Of a DNA stretch of 53,210 nucleotides, positions 15 through 52,040 are shown in pieces. Below the pieces are notes generated by a model. The model was given only the letters and a program-made list of their open reading frames with translations. It made no database searches and was not told the DNA's origin. Within the stretch, counting starts at the first letter, position 1; each line of letters begins with the position of its first letter. The stretch spans positions 1-53,210 of the IMG/VR virus record IMGVR_UViG_3300034061_003829; one strand, given 5' to 3'. A program made the translations under genes and the position numbers. Origin of the DNA: a virus (Duplodnaviria > Caudoviricetes).

Positions 15-725
15 ATGAATAAAACGACAATAATAAGTGATTTACACTTAGGTAGTAAGGCGGCAAGAAGGGAAGATATTATCAAGTTTTTAGATGAATT
101 AAAAACTGAGGTATTGATATTAAATGGCGATATTATTGATGGATGGGCTCTTCAAAGGGGTTCTAAATGGACTAAACAGGATACAAAAATCATCAGGAAG
201 TTATTAAAGATGTCAGAAACTGGGACTGAAATAGTTTGGGTTAGGGGAAATCACGATGAGTTTATTAGGGAGTTTATCCCTATGATGTTGGGTGATATTA
301 AGATGGTTGAGGATTACATTATTCAATCGAACGGTGTAAGATATTATGTTTTTCATGGTGATATATTGGATGTTTTTATTACAAAGATTAAGTGGTTGGC
401 TTATATTGGTTCAATTGGATATGATATTGCATTATGGATTAATCGCTGGTATAATAGATGGAGAAAGTGGAGAGGATTACCATACTATTCAATATCAAAG
501 GATATAAAAAATGGGATAAAGAAAGCAACCAATTTCATAAATGATTTTGAGGATAATGCTATAAGAATTGCCAAACAAAAAGATTGCCAAGTTGCCATTT
601 GTGGACATATTCATCAACCAGCAATGAGGGATAATTATTTTAATTCTGGTGATTGGTGTGAAAATTGTACTGCTTTGGTTGAAACAAAAAATGGTGAGTG
701 GAAAATAATTGATTTTCATAAATAA
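15..725 (+). CDS. Calcineurin-like metallophosphoesterase, UDP-2,3-diacylglucosamine hydrolase (LpxH-like)
   Basis: Motifs ISDLHLG, LNGDIIDGW, RGNHDE, FHGD, CGHIH and NSGDW in canonical order. Confidence 0.85.
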   Translation: MNKTTIISDLHLGSKAARREDIIKFLDELKTEVLILNGDIIDGWALQRGSKWTKQDTKIIRKLLKMSETGTEIVWVRGNHDEFIREFIPMMLGDIKMVEDYIIQSNGVRYYVFHGDILDVFITKIKWLAYIGSIGYDIALWINRWYNRWRKWRGLPYYSISKDIKNGIKKATNFINDFEDNAIRIAKQKDCQVAICGHIHQPAMRDNYFNSGDWCENCTALVETKNGEWKIIDFHK

Positions 726-22374: not shown

Positions 22375-23436
22375 ATGATATTAACCGAATATAATAAAAA
22401 AGATGTCGATATCTTAAAAGAATTAGATAATCAATTTACAATCGCCTTTGAGTTTGAGTTAGAAACTGAAGATCCTCACAATCCTGAAGAGGTTGATGAC
22501 GAAATAGTTATTCAAACAATTAAAGATGGTGTATATACTCAATTAAGAGGTGATAGAAGAGCCAACCCTGAGTTTATTGATGATATTATAAGTCAGATAG
22601 AATTAGATGATGAAGATTTCACATATGATGAATTATTAAACCCATCTTTATATGATGGTAACAAAAGAAGAATGATTGAGGTGATTAGAGGTATTTCAAT
22701 GGAAAATACTAATGATACTTTATCATATTTAACATTGAAGGTGAAAGAGTATTTACCTAATTTTTACAGAAAATGGTCAGACAAAATGAAGTTTGAACTT
22801 GATAATTCGTTGGATAAAGGTATTGAATTTTCACCTATCACATACTTAAACTCAATTAGTGAAGCGATAGATTTGATAAATGACTTTTATGATGACTTTG
22901 ATAAACAATCATATTGGAAATTCACACAAAAAACTGGTTTACATATAAACATAGGTTTTAAAGAAAGAAAAGATTGGAATATCCTTAAAGGTGTTTTATT
23001 TTTAAGTGATGACCCATCAAAAACCAAAAATAAAATACCTTATGTATTTAAAGGTATTGAAAGAAGGATTGGTAGTAAGTATGCTGGTTCATTCAAAAGA
23101 TTGGTGTTTGATAAGGTGGGTAGTGATTCTGAAACATTTACAGTTAAAAAAGATAACTTAGAGAATGTTGAGGATTATTTTAATGAATATCTTTTAAAGC
23201 TTTTAGATACGGAGGGTTATGATAGCCCCACATATTTTAAGTTGTATGGATTAAATATTACAAGATTAAAGAAAGATAATTACATTGAGTTTAGATATCC
23301 AGGAGGTCCAATAAATAGGGAGGTATTAATTGATAAGTTATTCTATTTCTGTTACTTATGCGCTTTAATGACAAATCCTGACTACAAAAAAGAGCAGTAT
23401 TATAAGAGATTATATACTTTTTTAAAATTATTTTAA
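22375..23436 (+). CDS. Putative amidoligase (COOH-NH2 ligase type 2)
   Basis: FEFELE, D.SL..GIEFSP, TGLHINIG and IEFRYPGG motifs. Confidence 0.75.
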   Translation: MILTEYNKKDVDILKELDNQFTIAFEFELETEDPHNPEEVDDEIVIQTIKDGVYTQLRGDRRANPEFIDDIISQIELDDEDFTYDELLNPSLYDGNKRRMIEVIRGISMENTNDTLSYLTLKVKEYLPNFYRKWSDKMKFELDNSLDKGIEFSPITYLNSISEAIDLINDFYDDFDKQSYWKFTQKTGLHINIGFKERKDWNILKGVLFLSDDPSKTKNKIPYVFKGIERRIGSKYAGSFKRLVFDKVGSDSETFTVKKDNLENVEDYFNEYLLKLLDTEGYDSPTYFKLYGLNITRLKKDNYIEFRYPGGPINREVLIDKLFYFCYLCALMTNPDYKKEQYYKRLYTFLKLF

Positions 23437-23442
23437 ATTTTT

Positions 23443-23473
23443 TTTGGTGTTTTAAATTTTATCTGTATATTTG
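23443..23473 (+). promoter_or_regulatory. Bacteroidota-type primary sigma promoter
   Basis: TTTG (23443-23446), 19-nt spacer, TATATTTG (23466-23473). Confidence 0.7.
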
Positions 23474-23495
23474 TATAACAATAAACAAATAAACT

Positions 23496-24991: not shown

Positions 24992-25360
24992 GGGCAATTA
25001 CTGGTTTTGACCTGTAATGGTTGGATATCTTAAACAAGCAAGACCTACTTTAAGTCTTTAAAAACTGAGGTAAAAAATCAACTGGCAACGGTTACAACTC
25101 TGAGGACATGATGTCCTTACCAACTTCACTTATGAAGAGCTTCAAAACTCAAGAAGCTGAACTTGAGTTAGCTTAAGTGAACTTGGCTTAAAGCCAAACA
25201 CAGCAAACCCTTTTGTTAGAGTAGTCAATAACTATCACACATTTTTCCGATTGGTGTTAAAATAAGAGGGATATTTGGTTGTTAGAAAATAACCTAAGCT
25301 TGTAAATAATTTAGGTTATTACAAATTATGGGAACGGAGGTTCGACCCCTCCATTGTCCA
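24992..25360 (+). ncRNA. ssrA: tmRNA (one-piece)
   Basis: Acceptor stem GGGCAAT/ATTGTCC with G3-U wobble and discriminator A; T-arm GGAGG-TTCGACC-CCTCC; resume context ATCAACT|GGC; tag ORF 25084-25176; 369 nt; CCA not encoded. Confidence 0.92.
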
Positions 25361-25420
25361 CGTTAGTTTATCCATTCTATCAAAATGGATTGGTGGAGTG
25401 ATACGAATATGGTCACCTCG

Positions 25421-46694: not shown

Positions 46695-48545
46695 ATGAGT
46701 AGTTTTTTATTAAAATCTGGTGAAGTAGGAAACATCGGATTAAAACAAATGAAACTTGTAAGAGAGCAAACTATTGAAAAATGGGATAGAATGGGCTTTC
46801 TTGAAGGTTTAGAAGGTCACACTAAAGACAATGTGGCTCAATTATTCGAGAACCAAGCTTCTTTCTTAATCAATGAAGCAACTGCAACAGATTCAGCAGG
46901 TTCTTTCGAAACAGTAGTATTCCCTATCATCAGAAGGGTATTCTCAAAATTATTAGCTAACGAAATCGTTTCAGTTCAAGCTTTGAACATGCCGATTGGT
47001 AGAATTTTCTACTTCGTTCCTAAAATTTCTCAGAGAACTCAAGTAGGTAATGTATGGCAACATTCAAATCCTTTTGGATATCCAAATACTGATACTAACA
47101 ACACACAATTCCAATCAACAAACTTGTATGATGCATACTATGATTCAACTTCAGGTTTAGACAACAACCAATTGTTTGACAGATCTAAAGGTGCTTACCA
47201 AGAATTCACAACAAACCCATTAACAATGGTTACTTTAACTACATTGTCAGGTGGAACATCAGTATTTACTAACGTTGCTACTGTAAACCAAACAGGTTGT
47301 ACAAGATATGTAACTTTTGAAGTATCTGGTTTCACTTCAGGTGGTGCTGGTAAAATCATCGGTCCAAATGGTAATGAAATGGATTCAGAAGAATTCTTAG
47401 CTTCATTCCAAATGTTAAATAACACTAACTTATTCTGTTGTACAGGTTCAACAGGTGGTGTTGGTTCAGGTAAAGGTACAACTATATCATACGCAGCTAA
47501 TTCACCAATGGAATTTAGAGTTGTAACTCAAAAGTACTCTAGACAAATCGTTGATTACTGGGCTCAAGTTCAAGGTAATTTAGGTGGACAAACAGTTCAA
47601 TCTTCAGCGCAAGATTTGTGTACTCCAACAGGTAAAATGTATGTTGAAGTAGATTTAAGTTGTCCAGCTTGTATCACTTGTGATTCAGTAGATGGTTATG
47701 TAGGTTCATATTTACCAGGTGGTGTTAATAACGAAGCTTTCTCAACATTCACCGCTAAATGGAGACAATATAGAGATTTAGAATTTGAATCAGCTTTAGG
47801 TGAAGTTTCATTCGAATTAGACTCAGTAACAATCTCTGTAACAGAAAGAAAATTAAGAGCACAATGGTCTCCTGAAATGGCTCAAGACGTAAGTGCATTC
47901 CATAACATCGACGCAGAAGCTGAATTAACAGCTATCTTGTCTGAAGAAATCGCAGCAGAAATCGATAGAGAAATCTTGAGAGATTTGAGAAAAGCAGCAG
48001 CTTGGAGATTAAGATGGGATTGGAACGGTTGGAAACGTGCAGCATCAGGTGGTGGTTTCAACGCTTACACTCAAAAAGACTGGAACCAAACATTGATTAC
48101 TACAATCAATCAGATTTCAGCTCAAATCTTCAAATCAACTTTAAGAGGTGGTGCTAACTGGATCGTATGTTCAGCTGAAGTTTCAGCAATCTTCGATGAT
48201 TTACAATACTTCCACGTTTCAAACGCTAACCCTGAAGAAGATCAATACAATATGGGTATTGAAAAAATTGGTACACTTCAAGGAAGATACAAAGTGTATA
48301 GAGATCCATACTTCCCAGCTAACAAAGTGTTAATCGGACACAAAGGTTCATCTATGTTAGATACTGGTTATGTATATGCTCCATACGTACCACTTCAATT
48401 GACTCCAACTATGTATAACCCATTCACTTTCGCACCTATTAAAGGTATCATGACTAGATACGCAACTAAGGTGTTGAACAATAGGTTCTATGGTGTTATC
48501 ACAGTAGATGGTATCAGAACTTTCAACGTAGCAGAATTAAGATAA
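46695..48545 (+). CDS. gp23: Major capsid protein (T4 gp23-like) with Cys-rich insertion
   Basis: FP..RRVF..L.A.EIVSVQ, RKLRAQWSPEMAQD..A.H.IDAEAELT, EIDREIL, GYVYAPYVPLQ and KGIMTRYA. Confidence 0.97.
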   Translation: MSSFLLKSGEVGNIGLKQMKLVREQTIEKWDRMGFLEGLEGHTKDNVAQLFENQASFLINEATATDSAGSFETVVFPIIRRVFSKLLANEIVSVQALNMPIGRIFYFVPKISQRTQVGNVWQHSNPFGYPNTDTNNTQFQSTNLYDAYYDSTSGLDNNQLFDRSKGAYQEFTTNPLTMVTLTTLSGGTSVFTNVATVNQTGCTRYVTFEVSGFTSGGAGKIIGPNGNEMDSEEFLASFQMLNNTNLFCCTGSTGGVGSGKGTTISYAANSPMEFRVVTQKYSRQIVDYWAQVQGNLGGQTVQSSAQDLCTPTGKMYVEVDLSCPACITCDSVDGYVGSYLPGGVNNEAFSTFTAKWRQYRDLEFESALGEVSFELDSVTISVTERKLRAQWSPEMAQDVSAFHNIDAEAELTAILSEEIAAEIDREILRDLRKAAAWRLRWDWNGWKRAASGGGFNAYTQKDWNQTLITTINQISAQIFKSTLRGGANWIVCSAEVSAIFDDLQYFHVSNANPEEDQYNMGIEKIGTLQGRYKVYRDPYFPANKVLIGHKGSSMLDTGYVYAPYVPLQLTPTMYNPFTFAPIKGIMTRYATKVLNNRFYGVITVDGIRTFNVAELR

Positions 48546-48619: not shown

Positions 48620-49033
48620 ATGAACAAACTGCGTAAAATTATTAAAGAACAATTATTATTAGAAAAAAAAATTGCAGTACTTACCTCTAAAATAGAGGTA
48701 GCTTTTAAATTTGAGGTTGATAGAAGCACACACGCATATCTAAGAAGTAAAAGAACGGATATACCTAATTACGATGAAAGAGAAATATCAAACTCAGAAA
48801 TAAAGTATGTTATTGAGTTATCTATGCGTAAAATAGCGGAATCAATTATGTTAGGTGAAATAAAAGATGGGGTTCCATTTGTTATTAAATCAATACAAAA
48901 AGAAATAGCAATTGCTATAGACCCTACACTTATAGGTGGAACTTATTGGAAATTATTTGTTCTTACAGTATTTAGAGAATCTGAAGAATTACCTTTCAGG
49001 GTTAGTAAAGATCAGATTGTCATATGGATATAA
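48620..49033 (+). CDS. Hypothetical head cargo protein, possibly BECR/RelE-like RNase fold
   Basis: LRKIIKEQLLLE leader; STHAYLR and terminal LFVLTVFR strand; TATTTATA 4 nt upstream. Confidence 0.55.
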   Translation: MNKLRKIIKEQLLLEKKIAVLTSKIEVAFKFEVDRSTHAYLRSKRTDIPNYDEREISNSEIKYVIELSMRKIAESIMLGEIKDGVPFVIKSIQKEIAIAIDPTLIGGTYWKLFVLTVFRESEELPFRVSKDQIVIWI

Positions 49034-49147
49034 AAAAACAGGGTTTAGTATCTAAATCGTTTCTACCCTGTTTAAATTAGGGGTTTTCAGTCCTAATCAA
49101 ATTGTGACTGATTTAATTGTATCTGAATTGTTTCCATCAATCACAAT
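49032..49147 (-). ncRNA. Candidate ~110-nt three-hairpin small RNA with duplicated loop motif
   Basis: Minus-strand TTTG-N19-TATATTTG promoter; three stems; GAAACRATTYAGATAC in two loops; ends in hairpin plus U7. Confidence 0.7.
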
Positions 49148-49148
49148 A

Positions 49149-49179
49149 CAAATATAAACAAAATATTTGATATACCAAA
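49149..49179 (-). promoter_or_regulatory. Bacteroidota-type promoter driving the candidate sRNA
   Basis: CAAATATA 49149-49156 and CAAA 49176-49179 on the + strand, 19-nt spacer. Confidence 0.65.
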
Positions 49180-49259
49180 AAAAAATAATCTTTTTTAAAA
49201 AATTGTGTATTTATTGTCCAGCAATGAATAAGTAGTTGTTTCAATGAATAAACAATTCA

Positions 49260-49505
49260 ATGGTATGGACACAAAACGTAATGCTTCTAAAAATAAAAAG
49301 CAAAATAAAACAGAATTATCTTACCTTCATATTAATGATGGCGATGTTCTTCAATCCGTTTGGTTACGATATGATTTTTTTCACTATCCTCAGCCTGACC
49401 GGTTCATATTGGATTACAGTTTCAATTTTTTACCTCATATCTGGGTGTTTATTCTCTTTATATTTCTACTTGTCTAAAAAAAATAAGAAAATTAGTGAGG
49501 AATGA
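49260..49505 (+). CDS. Small membrane protein (2 predicted TM segments)
   Basis: Hydrophobic FILMMAMFFNPFGYDMIFFTILSLTGSYWITVSIFYLISG.. with basic C-terminal tail. Confidence 0.65.
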   Translation: MVWTQNVMLLKIKSKIKQNYLTFILMMAMFFNPFGYDMIFFTILSLTGSYWITVSIFYLISGCLFSLYFYLSKKNKKISEE

Positions 49506-49561: not shown

Positions 49562-50050
49562 ATGGCAGATTTATTAAGCAAAATACCATTACCATTTGAA
49601 CCGTTAAGAAAAAATAGGTTCATCGTAAGATTTCCATCAACTTTGGGTATTAACGAATGGTATGTAACATCAGCATCAAGACCTACAATAACAATTGAAC
49701 CAACGGAAGTTCCATTTTTAAATACTTCTACTTATGTAGCAGGTAGATTTAACTGGGGAACAATTGACGTTACATTCAAAGACCCAATTGGACCTTCAGC
49801 ATCTCAAGCACTTATGGAATGGGTTCGTTTATGTGCTGAATCAGTTACAGGACGTATGGGTTATGCAGCTGGTTATAAGAAAGATATCGATTTAGAATTA
49901 TTAGACCCACCAGGAGCTGTAGTTCAAAAATGGAGATTAGAAGGAACATTCATATCTTCAGCTAACTTTGGTAGTTTAGATTATAGCTCTAATGATATTG
50001 CAGATATCACAGTAACATTAAGACCTGATAGATGTATATTAGTTTACTAA
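49562..50050 (+). CDS. gp19: Tail tube protein (T4 gp19-like)
   Basis: EP.RKNRF, RP.I, YVAGR..W..I..TF.D, EW, YKKDI.LE.LD..G..V.KW.L.G.F....FG.LDY and .TL..D. Confidence 0.92.
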   Translation: MADLLSKIPLPFEPLRKNRFIVRFPSTLGINEWYVTSASRPTITIEPTEVPFLNTSTYVAGRFNWGTIDVTFKDPIGPSASQALMEWVRLCAESVTGRMGYAAGYKKDIDLELLDPPGAVVQKWRLEGTFISSANFGSLDYSSNDIADITVTLRPDRCILVY

Positions 50051-50422: not shown

Positions 50423-50537
50423 TATCGTTATAATATTTCCTCAATTTTTCACCAAGAACCATGTCATTAGGCGTGGTTCTTATTATGTTCAGAATCTCTT
50501 CCAAAACTTTTTTACTATTGGATGGTATCGATTGCAT
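50388..50537 (-). CDS. Small hypothetical protein (PNDMVLGEKLR motif)
   Basis: Start moved to MQSIPS at 50537; last gene of the thioredoxin operon. Confidence 0.55.
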   Translation of the reverse strand: MQSIPSNSKKVLEEILNIIRTTPNDMVLGEKLRKYYNDTIGLSGKSPSQ

Positions 50538-50817
50538 GAATAATATTTGTTTTAGGTTGTAATCCAACAATTTTATTCTTTACCTCACCACCTTTAATAA
50601 ATATCAAGGTTGGGACTGACATAATTTCGTATTTACCAGCTACTTCCATATTTTGATTAATATCAATATATAAAATATTAACATCTGTTCTTTCACCAGC
50701 TATTTCAGTCATAACAGGTTTTAATATTTTACAAGGTCCACACCAACTAGCACTAAAGTAAAGTATGTTTAATTTTTCATTGTCCAATTCTAATTGGTTA
50801 TTTGCTATCTCTATCAT
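50515..50817 (-). CDS. trxA: Thioredoxin
   Basis: FSASWCGPCK, SVPTL.F.K.G. Confidence 0.92.
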   Translation of the reverse strand: MIEIANNQLELDNEKLNILYFSASWCGPCKILKPVMTEIAGERTDVNILYIDINQNMEVAGKYEIMSVPTLIFIKGGEVKNKIVGLQPKTNIIHAIDTIQ

Positions 50818-51133
50818 AATTTTCTATTTCTTTTATTATTTCAACTATTTGTTCTTTTGCTAATAAACCATCCCTATTACTCATTAATTTTTCATTTTTT
50901 ACAAAATAAAATGCTGGTACAATAGGGACATGAAATTTTGAATCAACAAAATCTCTATTTACATCCACATCTACATTATATACATCAACTGAATCTTTAT
51001 ATTCTTCAGATATTTCTTCCATAATTGGTTTCATTTGACTACAAGGTCCACACCATTTAGCTGTGAAACAAATTATACTAGTTTTTTCTTGATTTAAATC
51101 AAATTTTTCAATACCTTCTAAATTAACTATCAT
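50798..51133 (-). CDS. trxA: Thioredoxin (second copy)
   Basis: FTAKWCGPCS, VDVD, IVPAF. Confidence 0.9.
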   Translation of the reverse strand: MIVNLEGIEKFDLNQEKTSIICFTAKWCGPCSQMKPIMEEISEEYKDSVDVYNVDVDVNRDFVDSKFHVPIVPAFYFVKNEKLMSNRDGLLAKEQIVEIIKEIENYDRDSK

Positions 51134-51345
51134 AACTTTAAATCAATTTCTTTTTCACATTTATTACAAACTAATACCTCATAAGGTATTAATGCTTCCC
51201 TACCTGTTGGGGATAATAATGCCGATATTTTTTTAACCTTTAAAAGTTCTTTAAATGTTTTGTTTCCACATTCACATTCATAGTCAGGTTGTTCCAACAC
51301 GGCTTTCGGAACACTCACAATTTTACCATTTCCTATATTTTCCAT
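51130..51345 (-). CDS. Small zinc-ribbon-like protein
   Basis: CECG...CNKC and ISALLSPTG.E. Confidence 0.7.
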   Translation of the reverse strand: MENIGNGKIVSVPKAVLEQPDYECECGNKTFKELLKVKKISALLSPTGREALIPYEVLVCNKCEKEIDLKL

Positions 51346-51429
51346 TATATTTGTATCTTATATGTAGAATAATAAATAAAATGATTGTCAAAATAAACAA
51401 TATATATACCATAATTTTTAATTTTTTGT

Positions 51430-51460
51430 TTTGTAATTATAAAAAATTACCTTATATTTG
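51430..51460 (+). promoter_or_regulatory. Bacteroidota-type promoter
   Basis: TTTG 51430-51433, 19-nt spacer, TATATTTG 51453-51460; ATG at 51465. Confidence 0.7.
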
Positions 51461-51464
51461 TAAA

Positions 51465-52040
51465 ATGAAAGTAGTATTTTTAGATAATGATGGGGTAATA
51501 TGCTTACCTAAAAATTGGGGTAGTAGGTTTAAGAAAACCAAAGCATACTCTAACGTGGTATTTGGTTTAGATGGTAATATCCCAGTAGAGTTTAGGTTTG
51601 ATAACTTTGACAAAAAAGCAATCAAAGTTTTAAATGAAATCTTAACGGAAACAGGTGCTGAAATAGTTGTTAGTTCAGATTGGAGACATCACGCCACATT
51701 GGAAGAAATGGGTGAATACTATACATCACAAGGTATTATTAAAAAACCTATTGGATTAACACCTAAAACTGAGGATATTGACTCTAAATGGTGGAGTAGA
51801 TTTAAAAATCAAGCTCTCTTAGAGGATGAAAGAGTTATTGAAATTAGGTATTGGTTAGAACATCATCCCGAAGTAACTCATTGGGTTGCTGTTGATGACT
51901 TAAATCTTGGTGTATATGAACCCATTTCAGGTGATATATTCAATGAGGATGGTTTAATCAATTTTGTCCATACAAGAAAACTCAATGAAGGAATTAAACA
52001 AACAGGTATAAAAGATAAGATATTAAACTTCCTTAAATAA
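51465..52040 (+). CDS. HAD domain protein (Swiss-Army-Knife RNA-repair-like HAD)
   Basis: MKVVFLDNDGV, IVVSSDWR, G.TP, R..EI..WL and WVAVDD; start moved from 51255 to 51465. Confidence 0.85.
   Translation: MKVVFLDNDGVICLPKNWGSRFKKTKAYSNVVFGLDGNIPVEFRFDNFDKKAIKVLNEILTETGAEIVVSSDWRHHATLEEMGEYYTSQGIIKKPIGLTPKTEDIDSKWWSRFKNQALLEDERVIEIRYWLEHHPEVTHWVAVDDLNLGVYEPISGDIFNEDGLINFVHTRKLNEGIKQTGIKDKILNFLK

Follow-up and report, generated by a model that had tools for sequence, protein, structure and literature searches.

A predicted small RNA of a large freshwater phage and its undescribed family of conserved-loop hairpins

Structure of the locus

The analyzed window is the whole 53,210 nt stretch of record IMGVR_UViG_3300034061_003829, a virus of the Caudoviricetes. 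Within this window, a predicted small RNA gene of about 110 nt lies on the minus strand, antisense behind the capsid-gene module. The features of the locus are the following.

46695–48545, plus strand: major capsid protein of the T4 gp23 family (PF07068, E 1.1e-74; phrog_138)
48620–49033, plus strand: convergent gene of 137 aa abutting the predicted sRNA terminator, a conserved neighbor of unknown function
49149–49179, minus strand: predicted Bacteroidota-type promoter with TTTG (49179–49176), a 19-nt spacer and TATATTTG (49156–49149)
49101–49147, minus strand: hairpin H1, a 12-bp stem (49147–49136 with 49112–49101) and a 23-nt loop carrying GAAACAATTCAGATAC (49134–49119)
49075–49098, minus strand: hairpin H2, a 7-bp stem (49098–49092 with 49081–49075; AUUAGGA/CCCUAAU region) and a 10-nt A-rich loop without the motif
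49029–49074, minus strand: hairpin H3 and predicted terminator, a 9-bp stem (49073–49065 with 49044–49036), a 20-nt loop with GAAACGATTTAGATAC (49063–49048) and a U7 run (49038–49032)
49562–50050, plus strand: tail tube protein, T4 gp19-like (PF06841, E 6.4e-8; phrog_4542, E 6e-32), on the promoter side of the sRNA

An earlier note, made from the sequence alone, had described this arrangement of promoter, three hairpins and U7 with matching motifs in two of the loops, and this observation is confirmed. The two loop motifs are identical at 14 of 16 positions. One of the 12 pairs in H1 is U-G and would be an A-C mismatch on the plus strand. H2 has 7 pairs in the MFE fold, compared to the 6 given previously. 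The first three U of the U7 run lie in the H3 stem, and the run overlaps the stop codon of the convergent gene. The MFE is -27.8 kcal/mol (z = -2.98), and 1 of 200 shuffles folds as well. The sequence GAAACRATTYAGATAC occurs exactly twice in the 53,210 bases. Allowing up to 3 mismatches there are 7 matches against 3.8 expected, and 8 of 100 shuffles reach 7, hence only the two exact copies stand out. The only ORF is a TTG-started frame of 35 aa (49137–49244, minus strand), which overlaps the 5′ arm of H1 by 11 bases and otherwise runs over the promoter.

Taken alone, the window offers limited support for the promoter and the terminator. Matches to the promoter pattern are not significant in this AT-rich sequence (5 found against 5.4 expected), and a sigma-70 scan showed no enrichment. 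The terminator scan did not flag H3, because it allows loops of 3–8 nt and the H3 loop has 20 nt. A promoter region of 76% identity at 23419–23476 precedes gene 23496. The weight of the evidence comes from conservation in relatives and not from the window alone.

The order scaffold, MCP, (226-aa gene), 137-aa gene and antisense sRNA is kept in the relatives, in which homologs of the 137-aa protein with 38–97% identity lie next to the sRNA. Searches of Pfam, PHROG and PDB returned no sequence match for this protein. Its AF2 model has a pLDDT of 83, and Foldseek found only hits with E>0.1, among them RelE, YoeB, HigB and T4 RegB. The nearest named Atlas cluster is DUF4258 at 0.81. These leads are all below significance and provide only a weak hint of a RelE/RegB-like fold. 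The GenBank phage collection yielded no DNA match and one protein match, LR745206.1, in which the homolog is followed by a plain terminator and not by the RNA.

A hairpin family with a conserved loop

The RNA belongs to a large family absent from Rfam 15. At gathering thresholds, the whole window gave only a tmRNA at 24992–25363, and for the region 48950–49300 at E up to 10 the best match was an unrelated lncRNA model with 20.5 bits against a gathering score of 50. None of the papers searched for four motif strings contained them, and literature searches, judged from their listings, gave nothing on this motif. With three simple patterns we found the motif in well over 100 viral contigs, and it is abundant in lake viromes. 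The unit is a single hairpin, a stem of at least 5–6 pairs and of freely varying sequence that displays a loop of about 20 nt with the core AAC-N-AUU-N-AGAUAC-AA, usually right after TAnnTTTG. With the covariance model of this hairpin (R1), H1 of the window scores 36.3 bits (E 2e-6) and H3 24.9 bits (E 0.005).

To test whether the stems are structural, we compared 47 distinct hairpins. In total, 93.9% of cells are paired against 53.8% in shuffles, and 9 of 9 pairs change on both sides, in 176 such cells, which 0 of 500 shuffles reach; slid controls stay at or below 49.4%. The alignment was fitted to the model, which leans these counts toward the structure. Compensatory changes are also seen in H3, where AACAGGG/CCCTGTT of the window is AACGGGA/TCCCGTT in the related loci L014 and L033. 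For H2, RNAalifold on 20 full-length relatives predicts 5 pairs, 4 of them with changes on both sides, although H2 is missing in some relatives (loci L049, L204 and L252). Among the internal non-Watson-Crick pairs of 44 distinct stems, 18 are G-U/U-G, 3 are A-C/C-A and 10 are others, which fixes the strand. The note had named conservation of the motif without the stems as a refuting condition; this was not observed, as the stems are kept through compensatory changes while their sequence drifts.

A TAnnTTTG box ends 0–7 nt before the first hairpin in 31 of 39 family units, and 1 nt before the H1 match in the window. The same box type lies upstream of 16S rRNA genes in 5 of 5 Flavobacteriaceae leaders. 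Twelve loop columns are invariant in 47 of 47 rows. This invariance is partly an ascertainment effect, because most members were collected with patterns or a model that fix these letters; however, copies reached without any motif pattern, through the neighboring protein, carry the core in 11 of 11 loci. The two variable loop positions change almost only by transition (G 44 / A 3 and C 31 / U 14 / A 2). Units carry one, two or three loops, and one locus holds two 2-loop units in tandem.

In other giant phages, single hairpins head or sit inside tRNA arrays, or precede GOLLD RNA, in 20 of 20 assessable loci. The hairpin lies 460–740 nt upstream of the Rfam GOLLD match on the same strand in loci L079/L175, L221/L222/L280 (all in giant phage G017), L246, L257, L259, L260, L284 and L299, and about 840 nt upstream in L219. 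In G017 it is the 5′ leader of two longer RNAs, one of them GOLLD, with no U run after it. In L255, L312 and L314 it lies 32–33 nt before the next tRNA inside arrays, without a promoter of its own. Most single hairpins, in contrast, are closed units with their own promoter and U run and a fresh promoter following for the downstream genes. The RNA also occurs without the 137-aa gene, in L042, L047, L048 and the tRNA/GOLLD loci. Outside phages, it was found in three Bacteroidota MAG contigs next to a resolvase, with two copies just upstream of the resolvase gene; the 159-aa ORF beside these copies is unrelated to the 137-aa protein. The shared partner is therefore not a neighboring gene. In two related giant phages (G002 and G003), the core follows the AUG of a 118-aa gene, with the AUG in a 4-bp stem, the layout of a translational operator. 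The homolog in LR745206.1 lacks it, and no such site was found in the window.

We searched for complementary targets and found none beyond chance. A duplex scan of the window was no better than with shuffled loops, and the same was true for the loops against the adjacent GOLLD RNAs and tRNA arrays. With the complement pattern in 4 phage records, including three further records of 195–635 kb, every match with no mismatch was a motif copy itself. Two sets of 3 and 4 Flavobacteriaceae genomes scored at control level, and the single 1-mismatch hit lies inside a PriA-like ORF. With respect to expression, the one metatranscriptome run examined holds 8% of the sampled words and only depth-2 contigs of 151 nt over the locus. 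One of these (48954–49104) runs across the predicted H3 terminator and fits read-through on either strand, or DNA carry-over, as well as it fits the sRNA.

Possible function of the loop

Our best reading is that the locus is an independently transcribed small RNA, starting at a host-type (Bacteroidota) promoter and ending at its own H3/U7 terminator, of a widespread family of freshwater giant and T4-like phages of Bacteroidota. We propose that the loop is the binding site of a sequence-specific RNA-binding protein, which could be a host protein or a core phage protein and is probably linked to stable-RNA or tRNA metabolism or to RNA-directed defense. The RNA would then act in trans by offering one to four such sites, either titrating the protein as a sponge or decoy or recruiting it. 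This reading is tentative, with a probability of roughly 0.42. The structure, the strand, the promoter linkage, the family, the variable number of loops and the genomic association with tRNA arrays and GOLLD rest on the analysis itself, whereas transcription and its early timing, binding of the loop by a protein, and the identity of that protein are inferences. In favor are the variable number of loops, as in known protein-sponge RNAs, the near-invariant loop letters, the lack of a detected RNA target, the copy at the AUG and the occurrence in unrelated mobile elements.

The interpretation in the earlier note is thus partly supported. A self-contained promoter-to-terminator unit without a meaningful ORF, structural stems and a conserved, functional loop sequence are in line with our results. 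Its suggestion of an early RNA rests only on the promoter type, a decoy or sponge for a host protein fits the facts above but remains an inference without an identified partner, and a two-seed antisense RNA got no support from the five target searches. That the unit is a single hairpin, with two copies only one of several arrangements, and that the family is tied to tRNA arrays and GOLLD could not be seen from the window.

Two other readings appear unlikely but possible. In a trans-acting base-pairing sRNA, each loop would be a long seed for a conserved target of the form 5′-UUGUAUCU-G-AAU-U-GUU-3′ in a host or phage RNA. Long single-stranded loops on stable hairpins are typical seed displays, and pairing with a fixed U and a fixed G, through Watson-Crick or wobble pairs, would allow exactly the transitions seen at the variable positions. 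However, rare A at the second variable position and U at the first (loci L126 and L131) do not fit one fixed target, and none of the target searches above found a complementary site beyond chance, although without the true host genome its absence is not proven. Alternatively, the hairpin could be a cis-acting module, such as a 5′-terminal stabilizer, a processing signal, or a factor-dependent terminator or antiterminator of stable-RNA operons, which in the window would control transcription entering the late capsid module from the wrong side. Its position within a few nt of the predicted transcription start, the leaders and tRNA-array copies described above, and the same layout in host rRNA leaders (tandem promoter, hairpin and conserved element) fit this view, and a loop-binding factor could set the strength of H3 with its atypically long terminator loop. 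On the other hand, most single hairpins are closed units, a stabilizer or terminator needs no invariant 16-nt loop, and the window RNA has nothing downstream to regulate except the antisense of a convergent gene.

A DNA-level element is very unlikely. The sequence would then be a protein-binding or nicking site displayed in single-stranded or cruciform DNA, as in a replication origin, a recombination site or a mobile cassette, or else a variant late promoter. G-T wobble asymmetry would also arise in single-stranded DNA of that strand, the MAG copies lie upstream of a resolvase gene, and promoter-plus-hairpin cassettes occur in tandem like mobile regulatory cassettes. Against this stand the tight coupling to an upstream promoter and a downstream U run on the same strand and the occurrence inside tRNA arrays, where the hairpin would be co-transcribed; moreover, no recombinase or HUH nuclease gene was noted beside the phage copies, and the only recombinase seen next to any copy is the resolvase of the MAG contigs. 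The late promoter of this phage group, TATTTATA, located 5–6 nt before the ATG, matches the loop at only 5–6 of 8 positions, least in the commonest loop variant. Equally doubtful is an RNA anti-CRISPR that mimics a host CRISPR repeat and captures Cas proteins, although the family is also present in non-phage mobile elements. The stems vary freely while only the loop is conserved, and a repeat mimic should keep the whole repeat. An exact-pattern scan of 185,579 species genomes gave 37 stretches, about the chance number by a rough estimate, none in an array with CRISPR-like spacing, and R1 matched 0 of 150 other Bacteroidia genomes under strict filters that could lose weak matches; as the true host is unknown, this is not final.

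Further likenesses were rejected. For a mimic of the 16S rRNA helix 24 (790 loop), the best local score at that place of a Flavobacteriaceae rRNA operon was 16, below the shuffled mean of 18.8. Likeness to a Flavobacteriaceae rRNA-leader element (AAAGTTCATAAACA) was seen by eye, but the best PWM score against 5 leaders was 2.5 bits, with a null mean of 7.7. Hammerhead, anticodon-loop and T-loop likenesses were dropped on visual inspection. An inner helix within the loop (5′-GRAAC with 5′-GAUAC, capped by NAUUNA) is unsupported, because the outer G-C pair is not kept in variants such as ACAAC, AUAAC and UCAAC.

More speculatively, and unlikely on present evidence, the hairpin may be a new kind of RNA tool shared by mobile elements of Bacteroidota, its loop being the ligand of a host protein that acts on tRNAs or other stable RNAs, for example a tRNA-directed defense nuclease or an RNA-surveillance factor. 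Giant phages would express it with their tRNA arrays and GOLLD as a decoy, and the lineage of the window would have built a multi-loop version fired from an early promoter. In a bolder form, the hairpin would be a working partner or cargo of the GOLLD RNA assembly. Few phage-encoded regulatory RNAs are known, and RNA-based counter-defense has been described only recently. To our knowledge, this is the first element consistently linked to both phage tRNA arrays and GOLLD, whose functions are still open questions, so finding what binds the loop could bear on both. A hairpin of about 45 nt with 14 near-invariant loop letters is ideal bait for a pull-down, and R1 marks a class of genes that protein-centered pipelines miss.

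Comparison with known systems

The promoter-early stem-loop (PeSL) cassettes of T4-type phages reportedly (Arbiol et al. 2010) consist of an early-type promoter directly followed by a stem-loop, repeated in tandem and found at module borders of T4-like genomes, an arrangement resembling the one found here. PeSL stem-loops are not known to have an invariant 16-nt loop or to have been described as separate RNA genes. The small stable RNAs of the phage T4 tRNA cluster (species 1 and 2) are non-tRNA RNAs of unknown function encoded within or beside a tRNA cluster; they are longer, and the window copy is not near tRNAs. The antitoxin RNAs of type III toxin-antitoxin systems (ToxI-like) are tandem direct repeats of a whole unit upstream of an endoribonuclease toxin gene, but here only the loops repeat, the stems are unrelated, and the neighboring gene is convergent rather than downstream.

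RNA anti-CRISPRs, or solitary repeat units (PMC10651486), are likewise small, phage-encoded, promoter-driven structured RNAs in variable copy number thought to bind a host protein, but no likeness to any CRISPR repeat was found in the scans above, and conservation lies in the loop and not in the whole unit. GOLLD RNA (Rfam RF02032) shares the habitat, lake phages, and is reported to lie beside tRNAs. The hairpin is not part of the Rfam GOLLD model, the window itself has no GOLLD match, and no base pairing with GOLLD is predicted.

Protein-sponge sRNAs of the CsrB/RsmZ type also show the same short loop sequence on several hairpins with unrelated stems, in numbers that differ between relatives. 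In such systems the motif also occurs at translation start regions of target mRNAs; for the core there is a single case, in the 118-aa gene of G002 and G003. The loop core has 16 letters and is not centered on GGA, no CsrA-like partner is known, Bacteroidota are not known to possess CsrA, and the RNA is phage-borne. Membership in this class is excluded, and only the logic is shared.

The small RNA locus and its genomic setting

We read the minus strand of the locus and compared it with the earlier note, whose observation of a promoter, three hairpins and a U run held. Its coordinates are right, except that the second hairpin, for which the note had given 6 pairs, can form 7. The features of the window needed here are as follows.

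49179-49029, minus strand: in order, TTTG, 19 nt, TATATTTG, a 12-bp hairpin (H1) with one U-G pair, a 7-bp hairpin (H2), a 9-bp hairpin (H3) and a run of seven U
46695-48545: T4 gp23-type capsid protein
49562-50050: gp19-type tail tube protein
24992-25363, plus strand: full-length tmRNA gene (Rfam RF00023, 55.6 bits)
23443-23473 and 51430-51460, both plus strand: two more host-type TTTG...TAnnTTTG promoters, the first 76% identical over 55 nt to the sRNA promoter region, the second inside the listed ORF 51255-52040, suggesting a later true start (MKVVFLDNDG...)
For example 3913, 16166, 18035, 26113, 38651, 45317, 48607 and 49523, plus strand: motif (A)CTATTTATA a few bases before the ATG of many genes
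50515-51133, minus strand: two adjacent small ORFs of 100 and 111 aa carrying WCGPC, which by eye reads like thioredoxin

The minimum-energy fold reproduces the three hairpins at -27.8 kcal/mol (z = -2.98), and 1 of 200 shuffles folds as well. The loops of H1 and H3 hold GAAACAATTCAGATAC and GAAACGATTTAGATAC, identical at 14 of 16 positions, and these are the only two exact matches to GAAACRATTYAGATAC in the window. Taken alone, the promoter match is not evidence, as the same pattern occurs 5 times in the window against 5.4 expected, and the terminator scan ignores H3 because of its 20-nt loop.

The window is a viral metagenome record rated 17% complete by CheckV, which implies a genome of roughly 300 kb. 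Nearly identical DNA is present in lake-water metagenome runs from many studies. In addition to the (A)CTATTTATA motif in front of plus-strand genes around the locus, TATTTATA stands 5-6 nt before the ATG of the neighboring 137-aa gene in 16 of 16 relatives. By analogy with the T4 late promoter, we consider this probably the late promoter of this phage group, giving near-leaderless mRNAs. The sRNA promoter is of the other class. It is 76% identical over 55 nt to the promoter region of gene 23496, and its -7 box is of the type found upstream of 16S rRNA genes in 5 of 5 Flavobacteriaceae leaders examined. That the promoter is host-type and hence early is an inference from this. In these leaders (loci L335-L339), the rRNA operons are preceded by two or three tandem TAnnTTTG promoters, each followed by a hairpin and a conserved AAAGTTCATAAACA-like element, then TTGAATTGACAGCG, which may be the antitermination leader of this family.

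The neighboring 137-aa gene has no detectable family. A confident structure model (pLDDT 83) finds only sub-threshold structural neighbors, among which RelE, YoeB, HigB, ParE and T4 RegB recur, and a protein language-model search names DUF4258 as the nearest labeled cluster at 0.81, below the level to be trusted. An RNase-like neighbor would be suggestive, but this evidence is too thin to build on, and the RNA also occurs without this gene.

A family of hairpins with a conserved loop

A scan of viral contigs for the motif yielded at least 119 stretches, and eight of those loci carry two copies 69 nt apart. Independently of any motif, we fetched loci through the neighboring 137-aa protein. In 11 of 11 of them, the convergent downstream region holds one or two hairpins with the same loop core, even at 53% protein identity. 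The stems differ while the loop stays, examples of stems being AAACAGGGT/ACCCTGTTT, GAACGGGA/TCCCGTTC, AGGTGGGTT/GGCCCACCT and GAAACG/CGTTTC.

We built a covariance model (R1) from ten hairpins, which found the element in about sixty of the loci collected at that point; many of these hits were second hairpins that no pattern had picked up. On the model-based alignment of 47 distinct hairpins, 93.9% of cells form pairs against 53.8% in shuffles, every one of the 9 pairs shows changes on both sides, 176 cells carry such changes (0 of 500 shuffles reach this), and sliding the partner by 1-3 columns drops pairing to 49.4% or less. This alignment was fitted to the model, which favors the structure somewhat, but a stem table made without the model shows the same thing. 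H2 is supported separately, with 4 of its 5 predicted pairs changing on both sides in 20 full-length relatives.

To determine the strand, we looked for stems while allowing any mismatch. Internal non-Watson-Crick pairs in 44 distinct stems are G-U or U-G 18 times, A-C or C-A 3 times, and other 10 times. The structure therefore forms on the strand that carries the motif as written, which in the window is the minus strand. A TAnnTTTG box ends 0-7 nt before the first hairpin in 31 of 39 units. Of the remaining eight, one has the box 43 nt upstream, three of the four phage units without it have a near-variant by eye, ending TTTA where the box has TTTG, and three are copies in metagenome-assembled genomes (MAGs). 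The one RNA run that holds part of the stretch gives depth-2 contigs of 151 nt, one of which spans 48954-49104, across the terminator, and proves nothing about a discrete sRNA; the transcript is inferred, without direct proof. Most terminal hairpins are followed by a T-rich stretch.

In the 47 distinct rows, the columns A, C, A, U, U, A, G, A, U, A, C of the core are invariant. The first variable position is G 44 / A 3 and the second is C 31 / U 14 / A 2, while purines precede the core and AA follows it. Variants met later, including GGCAAC, GGUAAC, GUCAAC, GACAAC, GAUAAC and GGAAGAC, narrow the invariant part to AAC-N-AUU-N-AGAUAC-AA. Much of this set was gathered with patterns that fix these letters, so that invariance is partly built in. 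The copies reached through the protein and the second hairpins found only by the model are the fairer sample, and they keep the core.

Architectures and genomic contexts

In the arrangement seen in the window, the order is promoter, H1 with motif, H2 without motif, H3 with motif and U run. Among related loci (L numbers), L049 and L204 lack H2, L126-L132 and L207 lack H1, L306 carries three motif hairpins, and L252 carries two complete two-hairpin units in tandem. This type lies antisense in the late module, in the order scaffold, capsid protein, (226-aa gene), 137-aa gene, sRNA, next late genes. The 137-aa gene is usually the direct neighbor, but L042, L047 and L048 lack it there. No tRNA was found in the window or in six such loci.

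In the single-hairpin type, the order is promoter, one motif hairpin, often a U run, then a second promoter. Counting promoter-linked single hairpins and the tandem pair of L257, and leaving out two doubtful rows (L027, L090), three rows that are H1 of two-hairpin units, and six hairpins cut by the end of the locus, 17 such loci could be assessed. With three loci in which the hairpin lies inside a tRNA array, this makes 20 loci from 18 contigs, several of which are close relatives. All 20 have a tRNA gene or a match to GOLLD RNA within 815 nt downstream on the same strand.

Loci with tRNAs are L171-L174, L217, L218, L219, L289 and L315. L255, L312 and L314 are the in-array cases, in which the hairpin has no promoter and lies 32-33 nt before the next tRNA. 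In L040/L174, L004, L097 and L217, the second promoter is followed by a short conserved stretch and a small ORF (MKNLNLN..., MRTINKH..., MKTINVN..., MTTMNLN...) just ahead of the tRNA arrays.

Loci with GOLLD are L175/L079, the two cassettes of G017, L246, L257, L259, L260, L284 and L299; L219, counted among the tRNA loci, has GOLLD about 840 nt downstream as well. In G017, the hairpin has no U run and is the 5′ leader of the RNA that contains GOLLD. In five related contigs (L299, L257, L284, L259 and L260), a tmRNA gene converges on GOLLD. Upstream of GOLLD in L205 and L079, a second promoter-plus-hairpin cassette carries a loop GGGAATGAAAGATAC, which looks like a diverged, one-base-shorter relative of the motif and may be a sister family.

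The 635-kb GenBank phage LR745206.1 carries three single hairpins in such islands and none next to its 137-aa homolog. Downstream of that homolog (L216, 3400-3700) lies a plain hairpin terminator and a convergent ORF whose end reads by eye like an S1 RNA-binding domain.

Three Bacteroidota MAG contigs carry one or two hairpins next to a resolvase gene (PF00239, E 5e-35) and an ORF that by eye we take to be a tyrosine integrase. In the Flavobacteriaceae MAG contig (L158), a Flavo-1 RNA (RF01705, 71.9 bits; 341-419, plus strand) lies about 3.5 kb from the motif hairpins. Apart from these three contigs, the motif is not a cellular RNA in what we searched: one genome each of 185,579 species gave 37 exact-pattern stretches, about the chance number by a rough estimate, and R1 matched 0 of 150 other Bacteroidia genomes.

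Possible modes of action and comparison with known RNAs

Any mechanism has to explain a nearly invariant single-stranded sequence of 16 nt on a stem of arbitrary sequence, one to four copies per unit, a position at the very 5′ end of transcripts, presence in unrelated mobile elements with no shared neighboring gene, and a link to stable-RNA gene islands. We searched for a pairing partner and found none in the window or in the adjacent GOLLD RNAs and tRNA arrays. In the window's own record and three further phage records of 195-635 kb, every match with no mismatch is a motif copy itself, and seven Flavobacteriaceae genomes score at control level.

One zero-mismatch copy is different. In phage G002 (L224, 760-1116), and identically in phage G003 (L228), a 118-aa early gene begins ATG-AACAATTTAGATACAA, so that it carries the loop core at codons 2-6, behind a host-type promoter and with the AUG inside a 4-bp stem. 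The gene follows an AAA_33 kinase-like gene. Between these two phages, the first 20 codons and the upstream region compared carry almost no nucleotide change, while the rest of the protein differs by 14%. This is the layout of a translational operator. A 52%-identical homolog in LR745206.1 lies about 0.8 kb upstream of a motif hairpin, a tRNA-Met and GOLLD, but lacks the core.

A protein that recognizes the loop would explain both the mRNA copy and the multi-loop sRNAs, following the logic of CsrA with CsrB or of the T4 translational repressors. We therefore put a protein ligand first, tentatively and with a probability of about 0.42. A base-pairing role appears unlikely on present evidence, but the transition-only pattern at the two variable positions is a real point in its favor. 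A cis-acting role appears about equally unlikely, although the leader and in-array copies are a real point for it. The interpretation in the earlier note, of an early decoy or sponge RNA for a host protein or else a two-seed antisense RNA, is partly supported: the self-contained unit on the minus strand, the structural stems and the conserved loop hold, the early timing and the decoy or sponge role are inferred, and the two-seed antisense option got no support from the target searches. Mimicry of 16S helix 24, likeness to the host rRNA-leader element and late-promoter mimicry were dropped after testing, as was CRISPR-repeat mimicry after the exact-pattern scan and the R1 search of Bacteroidia genomes. 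A hammerhead-like core was also rejected because by eye there is no CUGAUGA and there are no stems between the conserved words, only GAAAC.

The analysis establishes a real and well-supported structured RNA gene, whereas its mechanism, including any binding of a protein to the loop, is inferred, as are its transcription and early timing. Phage-encoded structured regulatory or decoy RNAs are already known; what is new here is the family, with its striking invariant loop and an unexpected link to tRNA arrays and GOLLD RNA. No Rfam 15 model matches. No paper searched contains any of the four motif strings used, and further searches for related work, at the level of listings and abstracts, gave nothing relevant, although a mention in supplementary material cannot be excluded.

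The RNA is a member of none of the systems it most resembles. The closest analogs in logic are sponge sRNAs with repeated loop motifs. In genomic habit, the closest are the small stable RNAs of phage tRNA clusters and the promoter-stem-loop cassettes of T4-type phages, and in possible purpose, the RNA anti-CRISPRs.
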